Of a stretch of DNA of 21,361 bases, positions 6,000-16,325 are shown piece after piece. The stretch is from a virus. Lineage: Duplodnaviria; Heunggongvirae; Uroviricota; Caudoviricetes. Position 1 is the stretch's first letter; each line of letters opens with the position of its first letter. The translations under genes and the position numbers were made by a program. The stretch lies in the IMG/VR virus record IMGVR_UViG_2690316028_000007; one strand, 5' to 3'. Under the pieces are notes generated by a model, which saw nothing but the letters and a program-made list of their open reading frames with translations, was not told the DNA's origin and did not search any database.

Positions 6000-6120
6000 G
6001 GTCCTCCCAGTGAGGGGCCCTGCCACGGGGCGGGAGCGTCGCGGAAAAAGGCTAGTTTTTGAAATTTTATTCGTCATCACCACTACTGTAATTGATTGGT
6101 ATTACAGTGGTTTTATTTTT
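6000..6120. other. Lambda-like cos site (cosN plus start of cosB) upstream of the Nu1-like gene
   Basis: ACG GGGCGGGAGCGT CGCGGAAAAAGG...GAAATTTTATTCGTCATCAC aligns with the remembered lambda end ACG GGGCGGCGACCT CGCGGGTTTTCG...GAAAATTTTCCG...TTCGTCATAAC. Lies about 190 bp upstream of the small terminase start, as in lambda. Confidence 0.55.
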
Positions 6121-6213
6121 ATGGTGTCGATTCTGATTGTTTTTTGTTCATCGCTAACACCGTTTGCCTAAAGTTGTTCGCAAGATGCATGTTTAAAACA
6201 TTCTGGAGCGGGT

Positions 6214-6708
6214 ATGGATCGAGAGTTAAAAAATCTGACGCTGAATATCAGTCAACTGGCGGCATTGTCAGGTGTACATCGCCAGACTGCTGCGGCAAGG
6301 CTGCAAAATCTACCCGTTGCAGGGGGGCATGAAAGCAACCTCAAGCTTTATCGGGTGGTTGATATTGTGTCGGCATTTCTGGCATTACCACCGCCGGTTG
6401 CAGAAGGCGAAATGGACGCGCATGAGCGCAAAGCCTGGTATCAGTCTGAACGTGAGCGTCTTAAGTTCGAACAGGAAACGGCACAACTCATTCCGGCCAG
6501 TGATGTCAGACGGGAGTTTGCCATCTGGGCAAAAGCGGTCGTGCAGGTGCTGGAGACATTACCGGATATTCTTGAACGTGACTGCGGTCTGCAGCCTGCC
6601 GCTGTGAGCCGTGTTCAGTCCATTATTGATGATCTGCGCGATCAGATAGCCCTGCGGGTGACTGAAGCAGGTGCGGATGATGAGGAGGAATTACAGCAGG
6701 AGGAGTAA
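6214..6708 (+). CDS. nohQ: Terminase small subunit (Nu1-like DNA-packaging protein)
   Basis: N-terminal HTH-like LTLNISQLAALSGVHRQTAAARLQ. GGAG 7 nt upstream. Stop overlaps the next start (TAATG). Position immediately after cos. Confidence 0.85.
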   Translation: MDRELKNLTLNISQLAALSGVHRQTAAARLQNLPVAGGHESNLKLYRVVDIVSAFLALPPPVAEGEMDAHERKAWYQSERERLKFEQETAQLIPASDVRREFAIWAKAVVQVLETLPDILERDCGLQPAAVSRVQSIIDDLRDQIALRVTEAGADDEEELQQEE

Positions 6709-7412
6709 TGCTGAATCAGGAAACCGCAAAGGCAGCACGAACCGATTCAGGTTATATCCTTCGCGCACCGAGACGAATGCGGGTTGCTGATGCCGTTGCT
6801 CAGTATATGCGGGTGCCCATGGGGGCAGGGAACTCAGTCCCGTGGGATCCGCTGGTGGCACCGTATGTTATTGAGCCTATGAACTGCCTGGCCTCGCGTG
6901 AATACGACGCAGTGATATTTGTTGGCCCGGCACGAACCGGCAAGACTATCGGCCTGATTGACGGCTGGGTGATTTACAACGTGATTTGCGATCCTGCGGA
7001 TATGCTGATCATTCAGATGACAGAGGAAAAAGCCCGCGAACACTCCAAAAAACGACTCGCCAGAACGTTTCGCGTCAGCCCGGAAGTGGTCAGTCGCCTG
7101 AGTCCGAACAAAAATGACAACAACGTTTATGACAGAACATTCCTTGCTGGCAACTACCTGAAAATCGGCTGGCCGTCAGTCAATATCATGTCCTCATCAG
7201 ATTATAAATGCGTCGCGCTGACGGATTATGACCGTTTTCCGGAAGATATTGATGGCGAGGGGGATGCCTTCTCTCTTGCCTCAAAACGTACCACCACATT
7301 TATGTCCAGCGGTATGACGCTGGTGGAGAGTTCCCCCGCTGGCCATGCAGATCCCGGCGTTTCGTCAGAAACTGAGCGACGGCTGGTACCAGGTACGCAT
7401 TGCCGGGCGTGA
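6708..7412 (+). pseudogene. Terminase large subunit, N-terminal ATPase fragment (Walker A GPARTGKT), truncated at a deletion junction near 7320-7345
   Basis: Translationally coupled to nohQ. P-loop motif VIFVGPARTGKT. The ORF runs into out-of-frame tail-gene sequence and ends after 234 codons, whereas intact large terminases are about 600-640 aa. Confidence 0.7.
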
Positions 7413-7857
7413 TGCAGGTGAAACCGAATTGTCTGCCCGTCTTAATGAGCCGCTGGCAAATGGTGCCGTGATCCACATCGTGCCGCGTCTGGCGGGAGCT
7501 AAAAGTGGCGGTGTGTTTCAGGTGGTGCTGGGGGCGGCGCTGATTGCGGTGGCATGGTGGAACCCTGTGGGCTGGCTGGGTGCCGCGGCTGTATCGGGCA
7601 TGTATGCGGCAGGGGCCAGTATGATCCTGGGCGGAGTGGCGCAGATGCTGGCACCGAAAGCCAGGACGCCCACGGCAGCAAGTACAGATAACGGCAAACA
7701 GAACACCTATTTCTCCTCACTGGATAACATGGTTGCCCAGGGCAATGTTCTGCCTGTTCTGTACGGGGAAATGCGCGTGGGGTCACGCGTGGTTTCTCAG
7801 GAGATCAGCACGGCAGACGAAGGGGACGGTGGTCAGGTTGTGGTGATTGGTCGCTGA
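7345..7857 (+). pseudogene. C-terminal fragment of lambda tail assembly protein I
   Basis: The tail ...LAPKARTP...DNGKQNTYFSSLDNMVAQGNVLPVLYGEMRVGSRVVSQEISTADEGDGGQVVVIGR matches the remembered lambda gpI C-terminus. Frame opens only at 7318, in a different frame from the terminase fragment. Confidence 0.75.
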
Positions 7858-7875
7858 TGCAAAATGTTTTATGTG

Positions 7876-7903
7876 AAACCGCCTGCGGGCGGTTTTGTCG
7901 TTT
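7876..7903 (+). terminator. Terminator-like hairpin between the I fragment and the tail-fibre gene
   Basis: AAACCGCC-TGCG-GGCGGTTTT followed by GTCGTTT. Confidence 0.45.
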
Positions 7904-7917
7904 ATGGAGCGTGAGGA

Positions 7918-10893
7918 ATGGGTAAAGGCAGCAGTAAGGGGCATACCCCGCGCGAAGCGAAGGACAACCTGAAATCCACGCAGCTGCTGAGTGTGATTGA
8001 TGCCATCAGCGAAGGGCCGGTTGAAGGTCCGGTGGATGGATTAAAAAGCGTGCTGCTGAACAGTACGCCGGTGCTGGACAGTGAGGGGAATACCAATATA
8101 TCCGGCGTCACGGTGGTGTTCCGGGCAGGTGAGCAGGAGCAGACTCCGCCGGAGGGGTTTGAATCCTCCGGCTCCGAGACGGTGCTGGGTACGGAAGTGA
8201 AATATGACACGCCGATCACCCGCACCATTACGTCGGCAAACATCGACCGTCTGCGCTTTACCTTCGGTGTACAGGCACTGGTGGAAACCACCTCAAAGGG
8301 TGACAGGAATCCGTCGGAAGTCCGCCTGCTGGTTCAGATACAGCGTAATGGTGGCTGGGTGACGGAAAAAGACATCACCATTAAGGGCAAAACCACCTCG
8401 CAGTATCTGGCCTCGGTGGTGGTGGATAACCTGCCACCGCGCCCGTTTAATATCCGGATGCGCAGAATGACGCCGGACAGCACCACAGACCAGCTGCAGA
8501 ACAAAACGCTCTGGTCGTCATACACCGAAATCATCGATGTGAAACAGAGCTACCCGAACACGGCACTGGTCGGCGTGCAGGTGGATTCGGAGCAGTTCGG
8601 CAGCCAGCAGGTGAGCCGTAATTATCATCTTCGCGGGCGTATTCTGCAGGTGCCGTCGAATTATAACCCGCAGACGCGGCAATACAGCGGTATCTGGGAC
8701 GGAACGTTTAAACCGGCATACAGCAACAACATGGCCTGGTGTCTGTGGGATATGCTGACCCATCCACGCTACGGCATGGGGAAACGTCTTGGTGCGGCGG
8801 ATGTGGACAAATGGGCGCTGTATGTCATCGGCCAGTACTGCGATCAGTCAGTACCGGACGGCTTTGGCGGCACGGAGCCGCGCATCACCTGTAATGCATA
8901 CCTGACCACACAGCGCAAGGCGTGGGATGTGCTCAGTGATTTCTGCTCGGCGATGCGCTGTATGCCGGTATGGAACGGGCAGACGCTGACGTTCGTGCAG
9001 GACCGACCGTCGGATAAGGTGTGGACCTATAACCGCAGTAATGTGGTGATGCCGGATGATGGCGCGCCGTTCCGCTACAGTTTCAGCGCCCTGAAAGACC
9101 GCCATAATGCCGTTGAGGTGAACTGGATTGACCCGGATAACGGCTGGGAGACGGCGACAGAGCTTGTTGAAGATACGCAGGCCATTGCCCGTTACGGTCG
9201 TAACGTCACGAAGATGGATGCCTTTGGCTGTACCAGCCGGGGGCAGGCGCACCGCGCCGGGCTGTGGCTGATTAAAACGGAACTGCTGGAAACGCAGACC
9301 GTGGACTTCAGCGTGGGTGCGGAAGGGCTTCGCCATGTACCGGGGGATGTCATTGAAATCTGCGATGATGACTATGCGGGTATCAGCACCGGCGGGCGCG
9401 TGCTGGCGGTGAACAGCCAGACCCGGACGCTGACGCTCGACCGTGAAATCACGCTGCCATCCTCCGGTACCACGCTGATAAGCCTGGTTGACGGTCAGGG
9501 TAATCCGGTCAGCGTGGAGGTCCAGTCCGTCACCGACGGCGTGAAGGTGAAAGTGAGCCGTGTTCCTGACGGCGTTGCAGAATACAGCGTGTGGGGGCTG
9601 AAGCTGCCGACGCTGCGCCAGCGCCTGTTCCGCTGCGTGAGTATCCGTGAGAACGATGACGGCACGTATGCCATCACCGCCGTGCAGCATGTACCTTCTG
9701 CCCGTAAGGTGAATGGTAAGGCGCTTTCAGCGGATATAACACTGACGCCGAAAGATATTGGTACGCTTAACTCAACAACAATGTCATTCAGCGGTGGTGC
9801 TGGTTGGTTCAAATTAGCAACGGTAACCATGCCACAGGCGAGTTCTGTTGTTTCAATTACGTTGATTGGTGGCGCGGGATTTAACGTGGGGTCACCTCAA
9901 CAGGCAGGTATATCTGAACTTGTTTTGCGTGCAGGTAATGGTAATCCGAAGGGGATTACTGGTGCTTTATGGCAGCGCACATCGACAGGGTTTACAAATT
10001 TTGCCTGGGTCAATACATCTGGTGATACTTACGATATTTACGTTGCAATCGGAAATTATGCGACTGGTGTAAATATTCAATGGGATTATACCAGTAATGC
10101 CAGCGTGACGATTCATACGTCACCAGCATATTCTGCTAATAAGCCGGAAGGGTTAACGGACGGTACAGTTTATTCACTCTATACGCCATCAGAGCAGTTT
10201 TATCCGCCTGGCGCACCAATCCCGTGGCCATCAGATACCGTTCCGTCTGGCTATGCCCTGATGCAGGGGCAGACTTTTGACAAATCTGCATACCCGAAAC
10301 TTGCAGCCGCTTATCCGTCAGCCGTGATCCCTGATATGCGTGGCTGGACGATTAAGGGCAAACCCGCCAGTGGTCGTGCCGTATTGTCTCAGGAACAGGA
10401 CGGCATTAAATCGCACACCCACAGCGCCAGCGCATCCAGTACGGATTTGGGGACGAAAAACACATCGTCGTTTGATTACGGAACCAAATCCACGAATAAC
10501 ACCGGGGCGCATACCCATAGTATTAGCGGGACTGCAAATAGTGCCGGTGCGCACCAACACAAGAGTTCCGGTGCATTTGGTGGCACGAACACGAGCATTT
10601 TCCCTAATGGTTATACCGCGATTTTAAATCTAAGCGCGGGGATTATGAGCACAACAAGCGGTAGTGGCCAGACTCGTAATGCAGGGAAGACATCATCAGA
10701 TGGTGCTCATACCCACTCGCTGTCCGGCACTGCTGCAAGCGCAGGCGCACATGCACATACTGTCGGTATTGGTGCTCATACGCACTCCGTTGCGATTGGT
10801 TCACATGGACACACCATCACCGTTAACGCTGCTGGTAACGCGGAAAACACCGTCAAAAACATCGCATTTAACTATATTGTGAGGCTTGCATAA
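7918..10893 (+). CDS. stfQ: Chimeric tail fibre: lambda J (host-specificity protein) N-terminal about 597 aa fused in frame to a side-tail-fibre C-terminus with tail-collar-like region and HxH repeats
   Basis: N-terminus [34 protein letters not shown]... matches lambda J as remembered, up to ...AITAVQHVP (about nt 9700). Thereafter the protein diverges and GC content drops. C-terminus has GAHTHS/GAHAHT/GSHGHT repeats and ends [25 protein letters not shown] upstream of the ATG. Confidence 0.85.
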
Positions 10894-11468
10894 TGGCATT
10901 CAGAATGAGTGAACAACCACAGACCATAAAAATTTATAATCTGCTGGCCGGAACTAATGAATTTATTGGTGAAGGTGACGCATATATTCCGCCTCATACA
11001 GGTCTGCCAGCAAACAGTACCGATATTGCACCGCCAGATATTCCGGCAGGCTTCGTGGCTGTTTTCAACAGTGATGAGGCATCGTGGCATCTCGTTGAAG
11101 ATCATCGGGGAAAAACCGTCTATGACGTGGCTTCCGGCGACGCGTTATTTATTTCTGAACTCGGTCCGTTACCGGAAAATGTTACCTGGTTATCGCCGGA
11201 AGGGGAGTTTCAGAAGTGGAACGGCACAGCCTGGGTGAAGGATACGGAAGCAGAAAAACTGTTCCGGATCCGGGAGGCGGAAGAAACAAAAAACAACCTG
11301 ATGCAGGTAGCCAGTGAGCATATTGCGCCGCTTCAGGATGCTGCAGATCTGGAAATTGCAACGGAGGAAGAAATCTCGTTGCTGGAAGCATGGAAAAAGT
11401 ATCGGGTATTGCTGAACCGTGTTGATACGTCAACTGCACAGGATATTGAATGGCCAGCACTGCCGTAG
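10893..11468 (+). CDS. tfaQ: Tail fibre assembly chaperone (lambda Tfa-like)
   Basis: [54 protein letters not shown]... is nearly identical to lambda Tfa as remembered. Start overlaps the stf stop (TAATG). Confidence 0.9.
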
Positions 11469-11565
11469 GGTAAAACATATAAATTCTATAATTAGATGTA
11501 TCTTTCCATTTACGGCAAGGAAGGGGGCTTGGAACACGTAAAGCATCTCACACCGAGATTATTTT

Positions 11566-12156
11566 TTATATGTCAGGTGTCTGAAGTTTTGCTTTGGCTC
11601 TTAAAATGGTTTGCCGCGAGGTTTTGAATTCCCGGGCAATGGCACTTATACTTACACCTGACTTAATTCGTTCGAATACCACCTGTTTCTGTTCTTCATT
11701 TAACACAGGTGGTCGACCAAAACGTTTCCCTGCGCCGCGGGCTCTTACTATCCCGGAATGAGTGCGTTCAAGTAAAAGGTCTCGTTCAAATTCAGCGACT
11801 GCTGAAATTACTTGCATCATCATTTTTCCTGTTGGACTGGTCAGGTCAATGCCACCCAATGCTAAGCAATGCACTCTGATACCTGTTTCGGTCAGTTGTT
11901 CCACTGTTTTCCTGATATCCATTGCATTACAACCAAGGCGATCCAGTTTTGTCACAATCAATTGATCACCACATTTCAGGCGAGCAAGCAACCGGTTAAA
12001 ACCAGGACGCTCACTGGTTGCTGCTGAGCCGCTAATGTGTTCTTCGATTATTTGCTGAGGTTTGATTTTAAAACCTGCACTTTCGATTTCCCGGCGTTGA
12101 TTTTCGGTGGTCTGATCCAGCGTTGATATCCGACAGTAAGCAAAAATTCGAGACAT
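11566..12156 (-). CDS. pinQ: Serine recombinase of the resolvase/invertase family (Pin-like DNA invertase)
   Basis: N-terminal catalytic motif [11 protein letters not shown]-terminal HTH. 196 aa. Position next to tfa as in Qin/Rac. Confidence 0.9.
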
Positions 12157-12473
12157 AGTGAGACTCTATTCGAAATTGGTGTTCATATCATAATGCATCT
12201 CAGAAAATAATTATGATTATTTTTGTGCATATTTGTATGTACACGTTCGAAAATAAACGAATGCGTATGCAACCCCGTAATTTTTGGTGAGACCCAAAAT
12301 CGATTTTGTGAAAAATGGCTTTAACTCGGTTTGTTTTTCGAGTTCCGGGCGGACTCAAGGAAGAAGAATAGTGTTGCGTGTTATTTTAACCAGATTTCAA
12401 GTTGTTTGGACGTGGAAAAGTGGAGCAAAATGTTGTTAAAGTGGAAAAATGATAAAAAAGTAAGTTTATTATA

Positions 12474-12707
12474 TTACATTTTACCATTTAAATTTTGGTT
12501 GTCTTTAAGAACTGATATCGCTGTTTGTAATAATTCTTTGTTATCCAGCCATGATTTTTTCTTTATGTTTCCTTCAATGTAATCAAGCAATGTTCTGGTA
12601 TTAATAGGTCTTCCCTGTTTTGCTACTTCCACTACAGCATCCCCTAGGATAATTCTTACTTCAGGAAGCTGCGCAGGGAACCACTTTAGGGTGTCTTTTG
12701 ATTTCAT
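12474..12707 (-). CDS. ydfK: YdfK/YnaE-family small prophage protein (77 aa), reported as cold-shock induced
   Basis: MKSKDTLKWFPAQLPEVRIILGDAVVEVAKQGRPINTRTLLDYIEGNIKKKSW... ATG at 12707 preceded by AAGGA. The longer 88-aa start has no SD. Long AT-rich upstream region. Confidence 0.85.
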   Translation of the reverse strand: MKSKDTLKWFPAQLPEVRIILGDAVVEVAKQGRPINTRTLLDYIEGNIKKKSWLDNKELLQTAISVLKDNQNLNGKM

Positions 12708-13207
12708 GAAGATATTCCTTAAAATATTATTGATTTTCATTGCGATATTGTATGTCTGATTCAGGATATGTTGACTTATACATCGGTTTTGTCTGGGTTA
12801 TTGGATATGCCAATCCCTAATTTTATTAGGGCATGACTAAAAATGCTGAATATGATAAGGAGAGAAGTGATTATCAGTATGCTGTTCATATAGCCTCGAA
12901 TTAGTAATGTGTTATATATGATATAGTTGACAATTTTTATCTTGGGTGTTTTTAAAGTTCGTAGATAAACATTGTCGTTTCAGGTATACAGGAATGCTAG
13001 CAGGTGGCAGCAAAAATCAGGCGGTTTATGGCGCAAGCTGAAGCGGCAACTGCAAACTATCTTATGCAGAGACTCTACACGGATTGGGTTTAAAAGTATA
13101 CATAGATAACAGTTTTTATCTGAAAAAGAAAAATATCAAGGTGATATAGCCTATATGCCTTTGATGCGGAGGAATGACTGTGATGGGAGTGATGTATCTG
13201 AATAGTT

Positions 13208-13247
13208 GAAAAACCGCAGACACGCCTTATGCAAGAACGTGCTGCGG
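13208..13247 (-). terminator. Candidate minus-strand Rho-independent terminator about 250 bp inside the prophage end (possible tI/sib analogue)
   Basis: CCGCAG(A)CACG ... CGTG-CTGCGG imperfect 10-bp stem with 13-nt loop, followed on the minus strand by TTTTTCAAC. Confidence 0.4.
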
Positions 13248-13492
13248 TTGGCTGGTAAATTTTTCGATAGTGTGAGTATTGAATGATTTCCAGCCGTTCT
13301 TGATTTTACGCATAAATCCATGAAAAAACTACTTATCTGTTGGGGAGTTTTTTTGGGGCATATATGGGACAGAAATAGGCCCCAGATAGACACTGAGATC
13401 GAACTTAGGATGCTTTTTAAAAAATGCAACTATCTGAAAAAACCTAGAAAACGCCAAGGAAACCACAGGATGGGAAAAAACACCTGTGAATT

Positions 13493-14776
13493 ATGGATTT
13501 CCAGTTATATTCGCTCGGCGCAGCGTTAGTGTTTCATGAAATATTTTTTCCTGAATCATCAACGGCAATGGCGTTAATTCTGGCAATGGGAACCTATGGT
13601 GCAGGTTATGTGGCGCGTATTGTCGGAGCATTTATTTTCGGCAAAATGGGCGACAGAATAGGGCGTAAAAAAGTGCTCTTTATTACCATCACCATGATGG
13701 GGATCTGTACCACCTTAATTGGAGTGTTACCGACCTATGCACAGATTGGTGTTTTTGCCCCCATCTTGCTGGTGACGCTGCGTATTATTCAGGGATTGGG
13801 TGCAGGTGCGGAAATTTCCGGTGCCGGTACGATGCTGGCGGAATATGCGCCAAAAGGTAAGCGCGGAATTATCTCCTCATTTGTGGCTATGGGAACTAAC
13901 TGCGGAACCTTAAGCGCAACGGCAATCTGGGCCTTTATGTTCTTCATTCTCAGTAAAGAGGAACTGCTGGCGTGGGGATGGCGTATACCGTTCCTGGCGA
14001 GCGTTGTCGTGATGGTCTTTGCTATCTGGTTACGTATGAATCTGAAAGAAAGCCCGGTCTTTGAGAAGGTTAACGACAGCAACCAACCGACAGCAAAACC
14101 TGCACCTGCTGGTAGCATGTTCCAGAGCAAATCCTTCTGGCTGGCAACAGGGCTGCGTTTTGGTCAGGCGGGTAACTCCGGTTTAATTCAGACTTTCCTT
14201 GCAGGCTATTTAGTACAGACGTTATTGTTTAACAAAGCAATTCCAACAGATGCATTGATGATCAGTTCGATTCTCGGCTTTATGACCATTCCGTTCCTTG
14301 GTTGGTTATCCGATAAAATTGGTCGCCGGATCCCGTATATTATTATGAATACCTCTGCGATTGTGCTGGCGTGGCCAATGCTTTCTATCATCGTAGATAA
14401 AAGCTATGCCCCGAGCACCATTATGGTTGCACTGATTGTGATTCATAACTGTGCGGTGCTGGGATTATTTGCTCTGGAAAACATTACCATGGCAGAAATG
14501 TTCGGCTGTAAAAACCGCTTTACCCGGATGGCTATTTCAAAAGAAATTGGTGGTCTTATCGCTTCCGGTTTTGGTCCTATCCTGGCGGGTATTTTCTGCA
14601 CCATGACGGAATCCTGGTATCCGATCGCCATTATGATCATGGCATATTCAGTAATTGGTTTAATCTCTGCGCTGAAAATGCCAGAGGTGAAAGACCGTGA
14701 TTTAAGTGCGCTGGAAGACGCTGCGGAAGATCAACCGCGTGTTGTAAGAGCTGCGCAACCTTCCAGAAGTCTGTAA
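13493..14776 (+). CDS. ydfJ: MFS transporter of the metabolite:H+ symporter family (ProP/ShiA-like); reading frame opens only at 13490, consistent with loss of about 40 N-terminal residues at the prophage junction
   Basis: 427-aa ORF with MFS signatures (GKMGDRIGRKKVL, 12-TM-like hydrophobic profile). An in-frame TGA sits immediately upstream at 13487-13489. Starts at a motif (DFQLY) that in relatives lies about 45 aa into the protein. Confidence 0.8.
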   Translation: MDFQLYSLGAALVFHEIFFPESSTAMALILAMGTYGAGYVARIVGAFIFGKMGDRIGRKKVLFITITMMGICTTLIGVLPTYAQIGVFAPILLVTLRIIQGLGAGAEISGAGTMLAEYAPKGKRGIISSFVAMGTNCGTLSATAIWAFMFFILSKEELLAWGWRIPFLASVVVMVFAIWLRMNLKESPVFEKVNDSNQPTAKPAPAGSMFQSKSFWLATGLRFGQAGNSGLIQTFLAGYLVQTLLFNKAIPTDALMISSILGFMTIPFLGWLSDKIGRRIPYIIMNTSAIVLAWPMLSIIVDKSYAPSTIMVALIVIHNCAVLGLFALENITMAEMFGCKNRFTRMAISKEIGGLIASGFGPILAGIFCTMTESWYPIAIMIMAYSVIGLISALKMPEVKDRDLSALEDAAEDQPRVVRAAQPSRSL

Positions 14777-14787
14777 ATCCTCAATCC

Positions 14788-14813
14788 CTTCTCTTACCGG
14801 AGAGGGGATTTTT
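14788..14813 (+). terminator. Probable Rho-independent terminator after ydfJ
   Basis: CCTTCTCT-TACCGG-AGAGGGG stem (with G-U pairs) followed by ATTTTTATT. Confidence 0.5.
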
Positions 14814-14864
14814 ATTCATATAACAAAACATATAGCTTGCCATATTTATATTTAAGGAATTGTT

Positions 14865-16325
14865 ATGGGAAATAATTTGTTATCAGCAAAAGCGACACTC
14901 CCTGTTTATGATCGTAATAACCTGGCCCCAAGAATTATTCATTTAGGCTTTGGTGCATTTCACCGTGCGCATCAGGGCGTGTATGCCGATATTCTTGCTA
15001 CAGAACATTTCAGTGACTGGGGATATTATGAGGTCAACTTAATCGGCGGCGAACAGCAAATTGCCGATTTACAACAGCAAGATAATCTTTATACCGTTGC
15101 GGAAATGTCGGCCGATGCGTGGACGGCTCGCGTCGTTGGCGTCGTTAAAAAAGCCTTGCACGTACAGATGGATGGCTTAGAAACCGTGTTGGCTGCGATG
15201 TGTGAACCGCAAATCGCGATTGTCTCTCTGACAATCACCGAAAAAGGGTATTTCCACTCTCCGGCGACCGGACAGTTAATGCTCGATCACCCGATGGTCG
15301 CTGCCGACGTGCAAAATCCCCACCAGCCGAAAACAGCAACAGGAGTGATTGTTGAGGCGCTGGCTCGCCGTAAAGCGGCAGGACTTCCCGCATTTACCGT
15401 CATGTCATGTGACAACATGCCAGAAAACGGTCATGTTATGCGTGACGTTGTCACTTCCTACGCGCAAGCCGTTGATGAAAAACTGGCACAATGGATCGAA
15501 GATAACGTGACTTTCCCATCAACAATGGTGGACCGTATTGTGCCCGCAGTGACAGAGGATACGCTGGCGAAAATCGAACAACTTACCGGTGTGCGCGATC
15601 CTGCGGGCGTTGCCTGTGAACCTTTCCGCCAGTGGGTAATAGAAGATAACTTTGTTGCCGGACGTCCGGAATGGGAAAAAGCGGGAGCCGAACTGGTTAG
15701 CGATGTGCTGCCTTATGAAGAGATGAAGTTGCGCATGCTCAACGGCAGTCATTCATTCCTGGCGTATCTGGGGTATCTTGCTGGATATCAGCACATTAAT
15801 GACTGCATGGAAGATGAACATTATCGTTATGCGGCGTATGGCTTGATGTTGCAGGAACAAGCGCCGACGCTGAAAGTGCAGGGCGTTGATTTGCAAGATT
15901 ACGCTAACCGATTAATTGAACGCTATAGCAACCCGGCGTTACGCCATCGAACCTGGCAGATTGCGATGGATGGCAGCCAGAAATTGCCACAGCGGATGTT
16001 GGATTCTGTTCGCTGGCATCTGGCGCATGACAGCAAGTTCGAGCTGCTGGCACTGGGCGTCGCGGGTTGGATGCGTTATGTCGGTGGTGTTGATGAACAG
16101 GGAAATCCGATTGAAATCAGTGACCCACTGTTACCTGTTATTCAGAAGGCTGTACAAAGTAGTGCCGAAGGGAAAGCGCGCGTCCAGTCATTGCTGGCGA
16201 TTAAGGCGATTTTTGGTGATGATTTGCCAGATAATAGCTTGTTTACTGCAAAAGTGACGGAAGCGTACTTGTCTTTATTAGCGCATGGTGCGAAAGCGAC
16301 CGTGGCGAAATATTCCGTGAATTAA
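14865..16325 (+). CDS. ydfI: Mannitol-dehydrogenase-family oxidoreductase (D-mannonate/fructuronate oxidoreductase-like)
   Basis: 486 aa. N-terminal Rossmann motif [15 protein letters not shown] typical of the long-chain mannitol dehydrogenase family. AAGGA SD. Synteny with ydfJ and ydfZ. Confidence 0.9.

Follow-up and report, generated by a model that had tools for sequence, protein, structure and literature searches.

The 21,361-nt window analysed here (the whole stretch of IMG/VR record IMGVR_UViG_2690316028_000007, assigned to the Caudoviricetes) is, judged from its sequence, the Qin cryptic prophage of an Escherichia coli strain other than K-12. It carries an open reading frame (ORF) of 991 amino acid (aa) residues (7918..10893, plus strand; protein WP_060617316.1), in which residues 1-592 of the lambda tail-tip protein J are joined in frame to the final 399 residues of a side-tail-fibre (Stf) protein. 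The ORF is probably an accidental in-frame deletion scar and no designed protein, left at a recurrent, nucleotide-precise site in stf (GGTCGGG-TA) by conservative exchange of the serine-recombinase type with secondary TA sites. About 35 independent rearrangements, K-12 included, end at exactly this TA, and such a hotspot suggests an unrecognised site-specific recombination activity.

The crossover of the J::Stf ORF is a TA dinucleotide at 9692-9693, within the codon of V592; both parents encode V-P at this point, and P593 is the first codon of Stf origin. The motif AITAVQHVP, up to which the original prediction had followed J, corresponds to aa 585-593 (nt 9670-9696). In a megablast search of the ORF against 50,697 phage records, 262 records were matched; the top-scoring ones were J genes with about 97% identity, all ending at ORF nt 1775-1778 (window 9692-9695), and the remaining 1.2 kb matched stf genes. 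Homology to the intact 986-aa stf of the J-lom-stf-tfa locus of strain 2013C-3277 (L002) begins at about 9688-9692. The junction in the window is CAGCATG-TA-CCTTCTGCCCGT. Over a longer stretch, this stf parent reads ...AATGGTCAGG-TA-CCTTCTGCCCGTAAGG, the window ...GTGCAGCATG-TA-CCTTCTGCCCGTAAGG, and the J parent present in other loci ...GTGCAGCATG-TA-CCGGAGAAAG. Intact parents were recovered at 97-100% DNA identity on each side of a single TA. Comparison of the parents shows that this dinucleotide is common to both (CATG-TA-CCGG in J and TCGGG-TA-CCTT in stf), and the surrounding site (9680..9705) is a hybrid, with its left half from the secondary site at J residue 592 (J592) and its right half (CCTTCTGCCCGT) from the primary site of stf. 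Relative to an intact prophage, approximately 4 kb is missing at the junction, namely J from aa 593 to its end, lom, and aa 1-588 of Stf.

Pfam and PDB searches are consistent with two parents unrelated to each other. Megablast, Pfam and PDB searches agree on the J-derived part (aa 1-592; 7918..9693, plus strand), which consists of hub domains only. The N-terminal hub domains FNIII-A_GpJ and Phage-tail_3 were detected at residues 86-207 and 330-498, respectively, and residues 1-598 match the structure of lambda J (8iyk chain J). The Stf-derived part (aa 593-991, corresponding to aa 589-986 of the intact 986-aa Stf; 9694..10893, plus strand) comprises a Collar domain at residues 765-812 and a His-rich tip like that of T4 gp37, with residues 748-991 matching the gp37 fibre tip (2xgf, E=6e-82). 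It is followed by tfa, an intact gene for a tail-fibre assembly chaperone of the Caudo_TAP family (10893..11468, plus strand).

The J::Stf chimera with a breakpoint, proposed in the original prediction, is thus confirmed by the recovery of both intact parents with a single TA between them. The interval given for the junction (9690-9720) was correct, whereas the division of the protein between residues 597 and 598 was not, the true break being 592/593. The drop in GC content also holds, from 0.618 over the final 500 nt on the J side to 0.454 over the initial 500 nt on the stf side. The fusion had further been described as in frame with a strong ribosome-binding site; the frame is open, and the ribosome-binding site is merely the native translation start of J. 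As a refuting alternative, the protein could have belonged to a natural collinear family of J-like proteins with an Stf-like C-terminus and no breakpoint. The C-termini of J hubs do vary, and F-pyocin and other J-like structures align with residues 4-594 only. No such family aligns across the junction, however; intact J covers about 60-63% of the query, the other full-length matches are different J::stf deletion fusions with junctions of their own, and the near-identical parents flank one TA. We regard this alternative as vanishingly improbable.

The stf endpoint lies just past the last Phage_fiber_2 repeat, at the point where the constant N-terminal portion of Stf gives way to variable C-terminal modules that bind receptors and can be exchanged for one another. 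Overall, the partner genes joined to it comprise nu1, A, W, B, D, E, FII, V, H, L, J, lom and stf itself. Two other strains have gpA at aa 598 (E. coli JKHS016, in frame) and J at aa 155 (Z217-2, out of frame) as left partners at the same nucleotide. The JKHS016 ORF (L003, 2214-5222), a 1002-aa in-frame fusion of gpA residues 1-598 to Stf, is annotated as 'terminase gpA endonuclease subunit', and this annotation is an artefact of the stf hotspot. For the stf allele of the window (allele 1; native context GCGAATGGTCGGG-TA-CCTTCTGCCCGT), metagenome contigs were scanned with a pattern starting after the TA, and IMG/VR was scanned as well. The survey yielded about 175 loci with the native stf context and about 24 distinct non-native partners, all joined at the exact TA: nu1 (aa 78), gpA (aa 349 and other gpA types), a W-like gene, L, H, J (aa 155, 592 and ~1101), lom, stf (aa 93 and 385), and several unnamed sequences. 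In IMG/VR, A always precedes CC at the junction, and CA replaces TA in one case only.

A second allele, of the K-12 stfQ type (GRV/TALTDNTQ in the protein), has the native context CTTCAAAAGGTCGGG-TA-ACCGCGCTGAC and has only GGTCGGGTA (codons G-R-V) in common with allele 1. A search pattern without the TA recovered ten further partners joined at the homologous TA of this allele: nu1 (aa 176), J (aa 592), gpA (aa 81), D, FII, E (aa 284), V (aa 235), B (aa 358), an H-like gene, and one unnamed sequence. The nohA/stfQ junction in the Qin prophage of K-12 MG1655 (L217; NC_000913.3, ~1,635,840) belongs here, with nu1 codon 176 joined out of frame at the TA of the stfQ-type allele. Lambda-type nu1 reads GAATA-TA-TCGAAC and K-12 reads GAATA-TA-ACCGCG, the right side in K-12 being TA-ACCGCGCTGAC. 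The comparison with the K-12 stfQ junction, suggested in the original prediction, therefore reveals the same class of TA endpoint with a different partner (nu1) and a different allele. The point at window 10196 where homology to K-12 ends was considered as the end of the K-12 deletion and rejected, as it is a mere allele boundary and the nohA/stfQ TA junction lies further upstream. In a scan of GTDB species representatives, the site was found only in a Shigella flexneri genome, and it is therefore taken to be confined to E. coli/Shigella prophages.

The concentration of endpoints was controlled with loci collected by an anchor located 311 nt inside the C-terminal part of stf (stfC), independently of the site: this 311-nt interval contained only about four further classes of illegitimate junction, no two of them at one position, against about 24 at the TA. 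In all 21 junction classes found by patterns or searches that do not contain TA, the junction was TA, although this dinucleotide makes up just 4% of those in this DNA. Native partner sites were recovered in 29 cases, with TA in 24 and a one-base difference in five (CA, CA, TG, TG and TT). At the junction, about half of the recovered partner sites have nothing but the 2-bp TA in common with the stf site. Where an allele-1 partner had a mismatched core (four cases), the product carries TA in three and the CA of the partner in one (L215), a mixture of outcomes that a 2-bp heteroduplex resolved by replication predicts. The partners resemble the stf site more than do random TA sites of late-gene DNA, which served as background. 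Across the inner six positions (GGG-TA-CCT), they show 2.93 matches versus 1.68, a mean equalled by no resample among 100,000; a significant excess was also found across 24 positions (P=0.003). The combined half-site profile is approximately palindromic (C-S-G-R before the TA), and the J592 site, when flipped, agrees with that of stf in 13 of 24 positions and ranks in the top 0.7% of TA sites.

Products of both kinds were observed, with many deletions leftward and one rightward (L346, which retains the left half of the stf site joined at TA to the inside of tfa), in addition to an inversion. The inversion was found in two contigs of the same metagenome (3300029469) with inverted flanks. In the first (L176, IMGVR_UViG_3300029469_000044), the N-terminal part of stf (stfN) is followed by TA and a sequence Xright, then by gpA on the minus strand; in the second (L200, IMGVR_UViG_3300029469_000071), Z and U come first, on the minus strand, and then a sequence Xleft, which is joined through TA to stfC. 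Xleft, TA and Xright together align to an intact portal gene over 630/630 columns with no gap. By this alignment, the two contigs hold both reciprocal junctions of one inversion, which neither added nor removed a base. In the J part of the window, near-perfect copies of the left half-site were noticed on the minus strand at 8551-8559 (GTTCGGGTA) and 8899-8907 (GGTCAGGTA), and they could serve as inverted secondary sites. The idea of progressive erosion through a persisting right half-site was weakened, since alleles with different right halves act alike and their common element is the left half GGTCGGGTA.

When the 991-aa sequence was used as query in a protein search, many further in-frame J::Stf chimeras of 750-1370 aa were retrieved. 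DNA was recovered for eleven of them, which together with the window make 12 classes, and TA stands at the junction in 9/12 (one class shows TA against CA). The J sites used lie at aa 488, 518, 592, 601 and 879; the stf sites include CTGGC-TA-ACGGG in the Phage_fiber_2 repeats (used three times), TCAGA-TA-CCGTTCC, AT-TA-CCGGAGC, and the two main sites. The secondary site TCAGA-TA-CCGTTCC, at 10231..10244 in the window, is the one used by chimera P0022 (J aa 601). The chimeras P0003, P0005, P0007, P0008, P0018, P0022, P0026, P0027, P0029 and P0033 (loci L222-L231) are annotated as 'phage tail protein'; some of their prophages retain L, K and I upstream, and P0005 bears the name of a UniRef cluster of 136 members. 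One protein, P0004 (990 aa, 94% identical; L232, GCA_049842975.1, gene 6001-8973), has a J592-TA-stfC junction identical to that of the window. Its prophage differs in occupying the ompT site, in having Nu1-A-FI-FII-K-I upstream and no pin, and in carrying another variable insert in the His-rich tip. The P0004 junction could be an independent event or could have been transferred through homologous recombination.

A lambdoid prophage at the Qin site lost about 4 kb through exchange at a TA present in both J and stf. The stf site GGTCGGG-TA exchanges DNA conservatively with many weakly similar TA sites across the late operon, producing deletions when the sites are directly aligned and inversions when they are opposed. 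In the mechanism proposed here, the most likely chemistry would be a double-strand cut of the serine-recombinase type with a 2-bp stagger, followed by half-site exchange and religation. A fixed site, a 2-bp core, reciprocal products, both orientations, weak palindromic likeness of the partners and conversion of mismatched cores together make up the signature expected of a serine recombinase acting between a primary and secondary sites. Its main rival is a site-directed endonuclease (a free-standing GIY-YIG homing enzyme or a restriction-like one) that leaves 2-nt TA overhangs at the stf site and, through relaxed specificity, at partner sites, with host ligase misjoining the ends. GIY-YIG homing enzymes leave 2-nt overhangs, a palindromic TA overhang makes all four ends compatible and would give both deletions and a base-perfect inversion, a weak palindromic flank preference would fit, and a GIY-YIG (LEM-3) gene lies directly 3' of tfa in two loci. 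The presence of this gene in few loci only, however, tells against such an enzyme, as do the two simultaneous cuts and the escape from RecBCD that would be required in each of ~35 events, and cores with one mismatch (CA, TG, TT) should be harder to ligate than to form in a recombinase synapse. We consider this explanation unlikely. Ordinary microhomology-driven illegitimate deletion, by replication slippage or end joining, with the hotspot as a sampling artefact, is more unlikely still. It could draw on junctions with 5-8 nt in common with the stf site (L211, L203 and L196), on the three J::Stf classes whose junctions have microhomologies other than TA, and on one further junction of the window between gpA and I (see below). 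Yet ~34 partners in two alleles end at one phosphodiester position against some four classes in the neighbouring 311 nt, roughly half of the partner sites offer a homology of 2 bp, TA occurs in every unforced case against its 4% background, and a reciprocal inversion is not a slippage product. Among other activities considered, adjacent deletion mediated by an insertion sequence is a poor fit to a 2-bp TA overlap with no element left, and neither tyrosine recombinases (6-8 bp overlap), gyrase (4-bp stagger, GRYC) nor RusA (cuts 5' of CC) fits such an overlap. The stretch GGTCGGGTACCT (window 9685-9696 and the native stf site) matches GGGCGGCGACCT, which we take to be the lambda cohesive-end sequence, at 9/12 positions; the TA does not fall where the terminase nicks, the match in allele 2 is just 7/12, and the likeness is probably due to chance.

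Serine-recombinase-type exchange at the stf TA naturally directs attention to the small serine recombinase gene of the pinQ type located 0.1 kb past tfa (11566..12156, minus strand; 196 aa, with Resolvase and HTH_7 domains), although this enzyme is a candidate only. PinQ is known to invert the P segment of e14 (PMC12529663), and the exchange of stf among phages was attributed by De Paepe et al. to stf-associated invertases (PMC3945230). The PinQ/PinR-type recombinase encoded beside tfa is thus a possible, faintly indicated suspect for the TA exchange. The more specific proposal, that stf of E. coli lambdoid prophages carries a dedicated site GGTCGGG-TA which a putative conservative recombinase, perhaps of the PinQ/PinR class, pairs with almost any TA flanked by G/C-rich sequence, appears plausible, if somewhat short of probable. 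Several observations weigh against these readings. The stf site is dissimilar to the 26-bp crossover consensus of the Din family (TTNTCNNAAACC-NN-GGTTTNNGANAA), of which no site occurs anywhere in the window and nothing was found near stf, tfa or pin in a scan of the window and four loci, and no second copy of the stf site, inverted or direct, was found near pin. The pin gene is present in cis in only 10/18 rearranged versus 16/71 intact loci (Fisher P=0.009, with sampling that was not independent), a partial association that is the sole indirect pointer to dependence on a serine recombinase, and phage 2H10 has stf-tfa-pin yet lacks the site. Moreover, reciprocity is known from a single inversion pair, and 3/12 J::Stf classes have microhomologies other than TA at their junctions (GCGA, CA and TG), which indicates that ordinary microhomology deletions occur too.

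The best match to the Din consensus in the window (5/18 mismatches) is at 14042, outside the prophage. PinQ is about equally far from Gin (1e-29) and from gamma-delta resolvase (1e-22), and its HTH region has few identities to that of Gin; its cognate site is therefore unpredictable. Alternative C-terminal cassettes were not found in the window, which has one tfa only and no second stfC. A cassette suggested by CCGTAGGGTA at the tfa stop codon was discarded (a match of 7/9 only, not conserved), as was the likeness of CCTTCTGCC to the e14 P-segment repeat CCTTCTCCCAAACCAA, in which the repeat is on the opposite strand with respect to the fibre frame and the crossover is 14 nt off.

With regard to the product of the chimeric gene, the original prediction held that the ORF had been kept open, possibly as a receptor-binding protein usable by a helper phage or as an adhesin-like product. 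Nothing was found in support of either function, and no sign of selection for the open frame was detected among the sister junction classes or the related genomes. The in-frame proportion of junction classes at the same stf site is ~9/34, which does not differ from the one third expected by chance (P=0.47), and the sister junctions suggest that the frame stayed open by chance. In seven complete genomes (strain H3 and others) and in L358, the same J592 end is joined 265 bp deeper in stf, at the secondary TA site GGGAT-TA-CTGGTGC (9952..9965 in the window). This version, located at 7990-8010 in L001 (the DLP12/ompT site of E. coli H3), does not keep the frame and has been annotated as two pseudogenes. 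It may be a secondary deletion derived from a junction of the window type or an independent event. The exact protein WP_060617316.1 was found in 9 contigs, every one in Qin context, and the exact J592-stf junction of the window in none of 5,426 complete genomes.

The domain content of the protein points in the same direction. Intact Stf of L002 has phage_tail_N (PF08400) at residues 1-134 and Phage_fiber_2 repeats at ~462-502, and Pfam detects neither in the 991-aa protein; likewise absent are the Ig_J (610-714), Ig_J_second (716-818), Phage_Tail_Tip (845-972) and Ig_GpJ_C (1001-1132) domains of lambda J. The N-terminal domain of Stf (PF08400) attaches side fibres to the tail (PMC12617516), and the fibronectin type III (FNIII) domains, shaft and receptor-binding domain of J close the tip and bind LamB (PMC11101478); the chimera is without either of these parts, which use in a virion would require. 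A functional chimera maintained by selection, whether for use by a helper phage or in a surface role like that of StfE2, is therefore hard to credit and has a slim chance of being correct: besides the chance-level share of open frames, the frame is lost in a sister lineage, the attachment domain of Stf and the fibre and closing domains of J are gone, this prophage cannot build tails, and the allele is rare. On the other side, the ORF is intact with the native J start, and a cognate Tfa chaperone is encoded directly after it. The J break sits in a linker, 17 aa ahead of the first Ig/FNIII domain (which starts at aa 610), so the product, with its complete gp37-like tip, could fold. The same junction occurs in a second prophage (P0004, L232) with flanks 94% identical, numerous in-frame J::Stf chimeras exist, and a chimeric Stf of e14 blocks T2 adsorption (PMC12529663).

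The prophage of the window was identified as Qin from its right flank, formed by ydfJ and ydfI (13493..16325, plus strand; chromosomal), and K-12 MG1655 aligns at 98.7% to window 10196-15778. In order, the genes present are those for lysis and for the small terminase, fragments of gpA and of I, J::stf, tfa, pinQ (minus strand), ydfK, ynfT and ydfJ. Apart from the small terminase and gpA fragment, no head genes are left in the prophage, nor are H, M, L, K or lom. The remnant of gpA, the terminase large subunit, retains the ATPase domain only (6708..7338, plus strand), and that of the tail assembly gene I corresponds to aa 44-223 of lambda I (7339..7857, plus strand). At 7338/7339, a separate deletion fuses the gpA ATPase domain to codon 44 of I. 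The parents at this point are ...TTCCCCCG/GCAGGG and ...CCGGGCG/CTGGCC, with the microhomology CG and not TA; ordinary illegitimate deletions therefore also shaped the prophage. The slot 3' of tfa varies among prophages and is occupied by pinQ, by a gene for an S-adenosylmethionine (SAM) methyltransferase or a GIY-YIG (LEM-3) nuclease, or by one for a reverse-transcriptase/TIR protein; cargo genes at this position were located at 4401-5174 in L222, 4400-5173 in L224 and 4271-5685 in L223, all on the minus strand. This position appears to be a variable one that accommodates cargo or defence genes.

Taken alone, the chimera is ordinary, being a fused pseudogene-like ORF in a cryptic prophage. 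The significance lies in the stf TA site, of which no description was found in the literature searched. If the proposed exchange is real, a large share of lambdoid prophage erosion in E. coli would be channelled through one defined tail-fibre site instead of proceeding by random deletion, and a putative recombinase would be a main cause of prophage decay, of in-frame fusions such as J::Stf, and of the nohA/stfQ junction, a feature of the K-12 reference genome that would thereby be accounted for. We know of no description of a crossover site beside the own gene of a recombinase of the PinQ/PinR class, and the stf TA site would offer these enzymes a concrete, testable candidate substrate, as both a 60-bp site and its TA core can be mutated. 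It would also illustrate, in nature, Arber's idea that gene fusions arise when site-specific recombination is relaxed. Annotators should be aware that ORFs of ~750-1400 aa that are named 'phage tail protein' and have the N-terminus of J are deletion products.

Among known systems, the closest likeness in behaviour may be that of phage P1 Cin, for which Iida and Hiestand-Nauer reportedly described, in 1986 and 1987 (cited in PMC4134206), recombination at secondary 'quasi' sites in the laboratory; the stf exchange would be its natural counterpart. In that system, one proper site likewise recombines with many weakly similar ones, the central dinucleotide has to match, mismatched cores are converted, and inversions and deletions fuse tail-fibre coding sequence to unrelated genes. 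The stf events differ in being natural and fixed in genomes, in having a palindromic TA core and a site unlike cix, hix, gix and pix, and in occurring at a locus without a partner primary site or an invertible segment. The Int-promoted deletions of lambda, said to have been reported by Parkinson and by Davis in 1971, reportedly have one end fixed at att; they too are nested, with one fixed site-specific end and variable second ends at secondary sites, whereas the deletions described here are anchored in stf, with an overlap of 2 bp instead of 7 bp. Serine transposases of the IS607 family pair a specific site with nearly any target that has the core dinucleotide, as the stf site does, but they act on transposon ends with a transposase of their own, and no such element is present at the stf locus. 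As in the fibre switches of the Din type (the G segment of Mu, the C segment of P1, the P segment of e14 and the EC958 prophages; PMC4134206, PMC12529663), the crossover falls between Phage_fiber_2 repeats and the Collar module, and tfa and a small serine recombinase gene adjoin it; unlike those switches, the stf locus has no 26-bp consensus site, no inverted site pair and no alternative C-terminal cassette. Finally, the nohA/stfQ junction of K-12 differs from that of the window in its partner (nu1 instead of J), in its stf allele and in being out of frame, but it lies in the same prophage and represents the same class of event at the homologous TA of stf.

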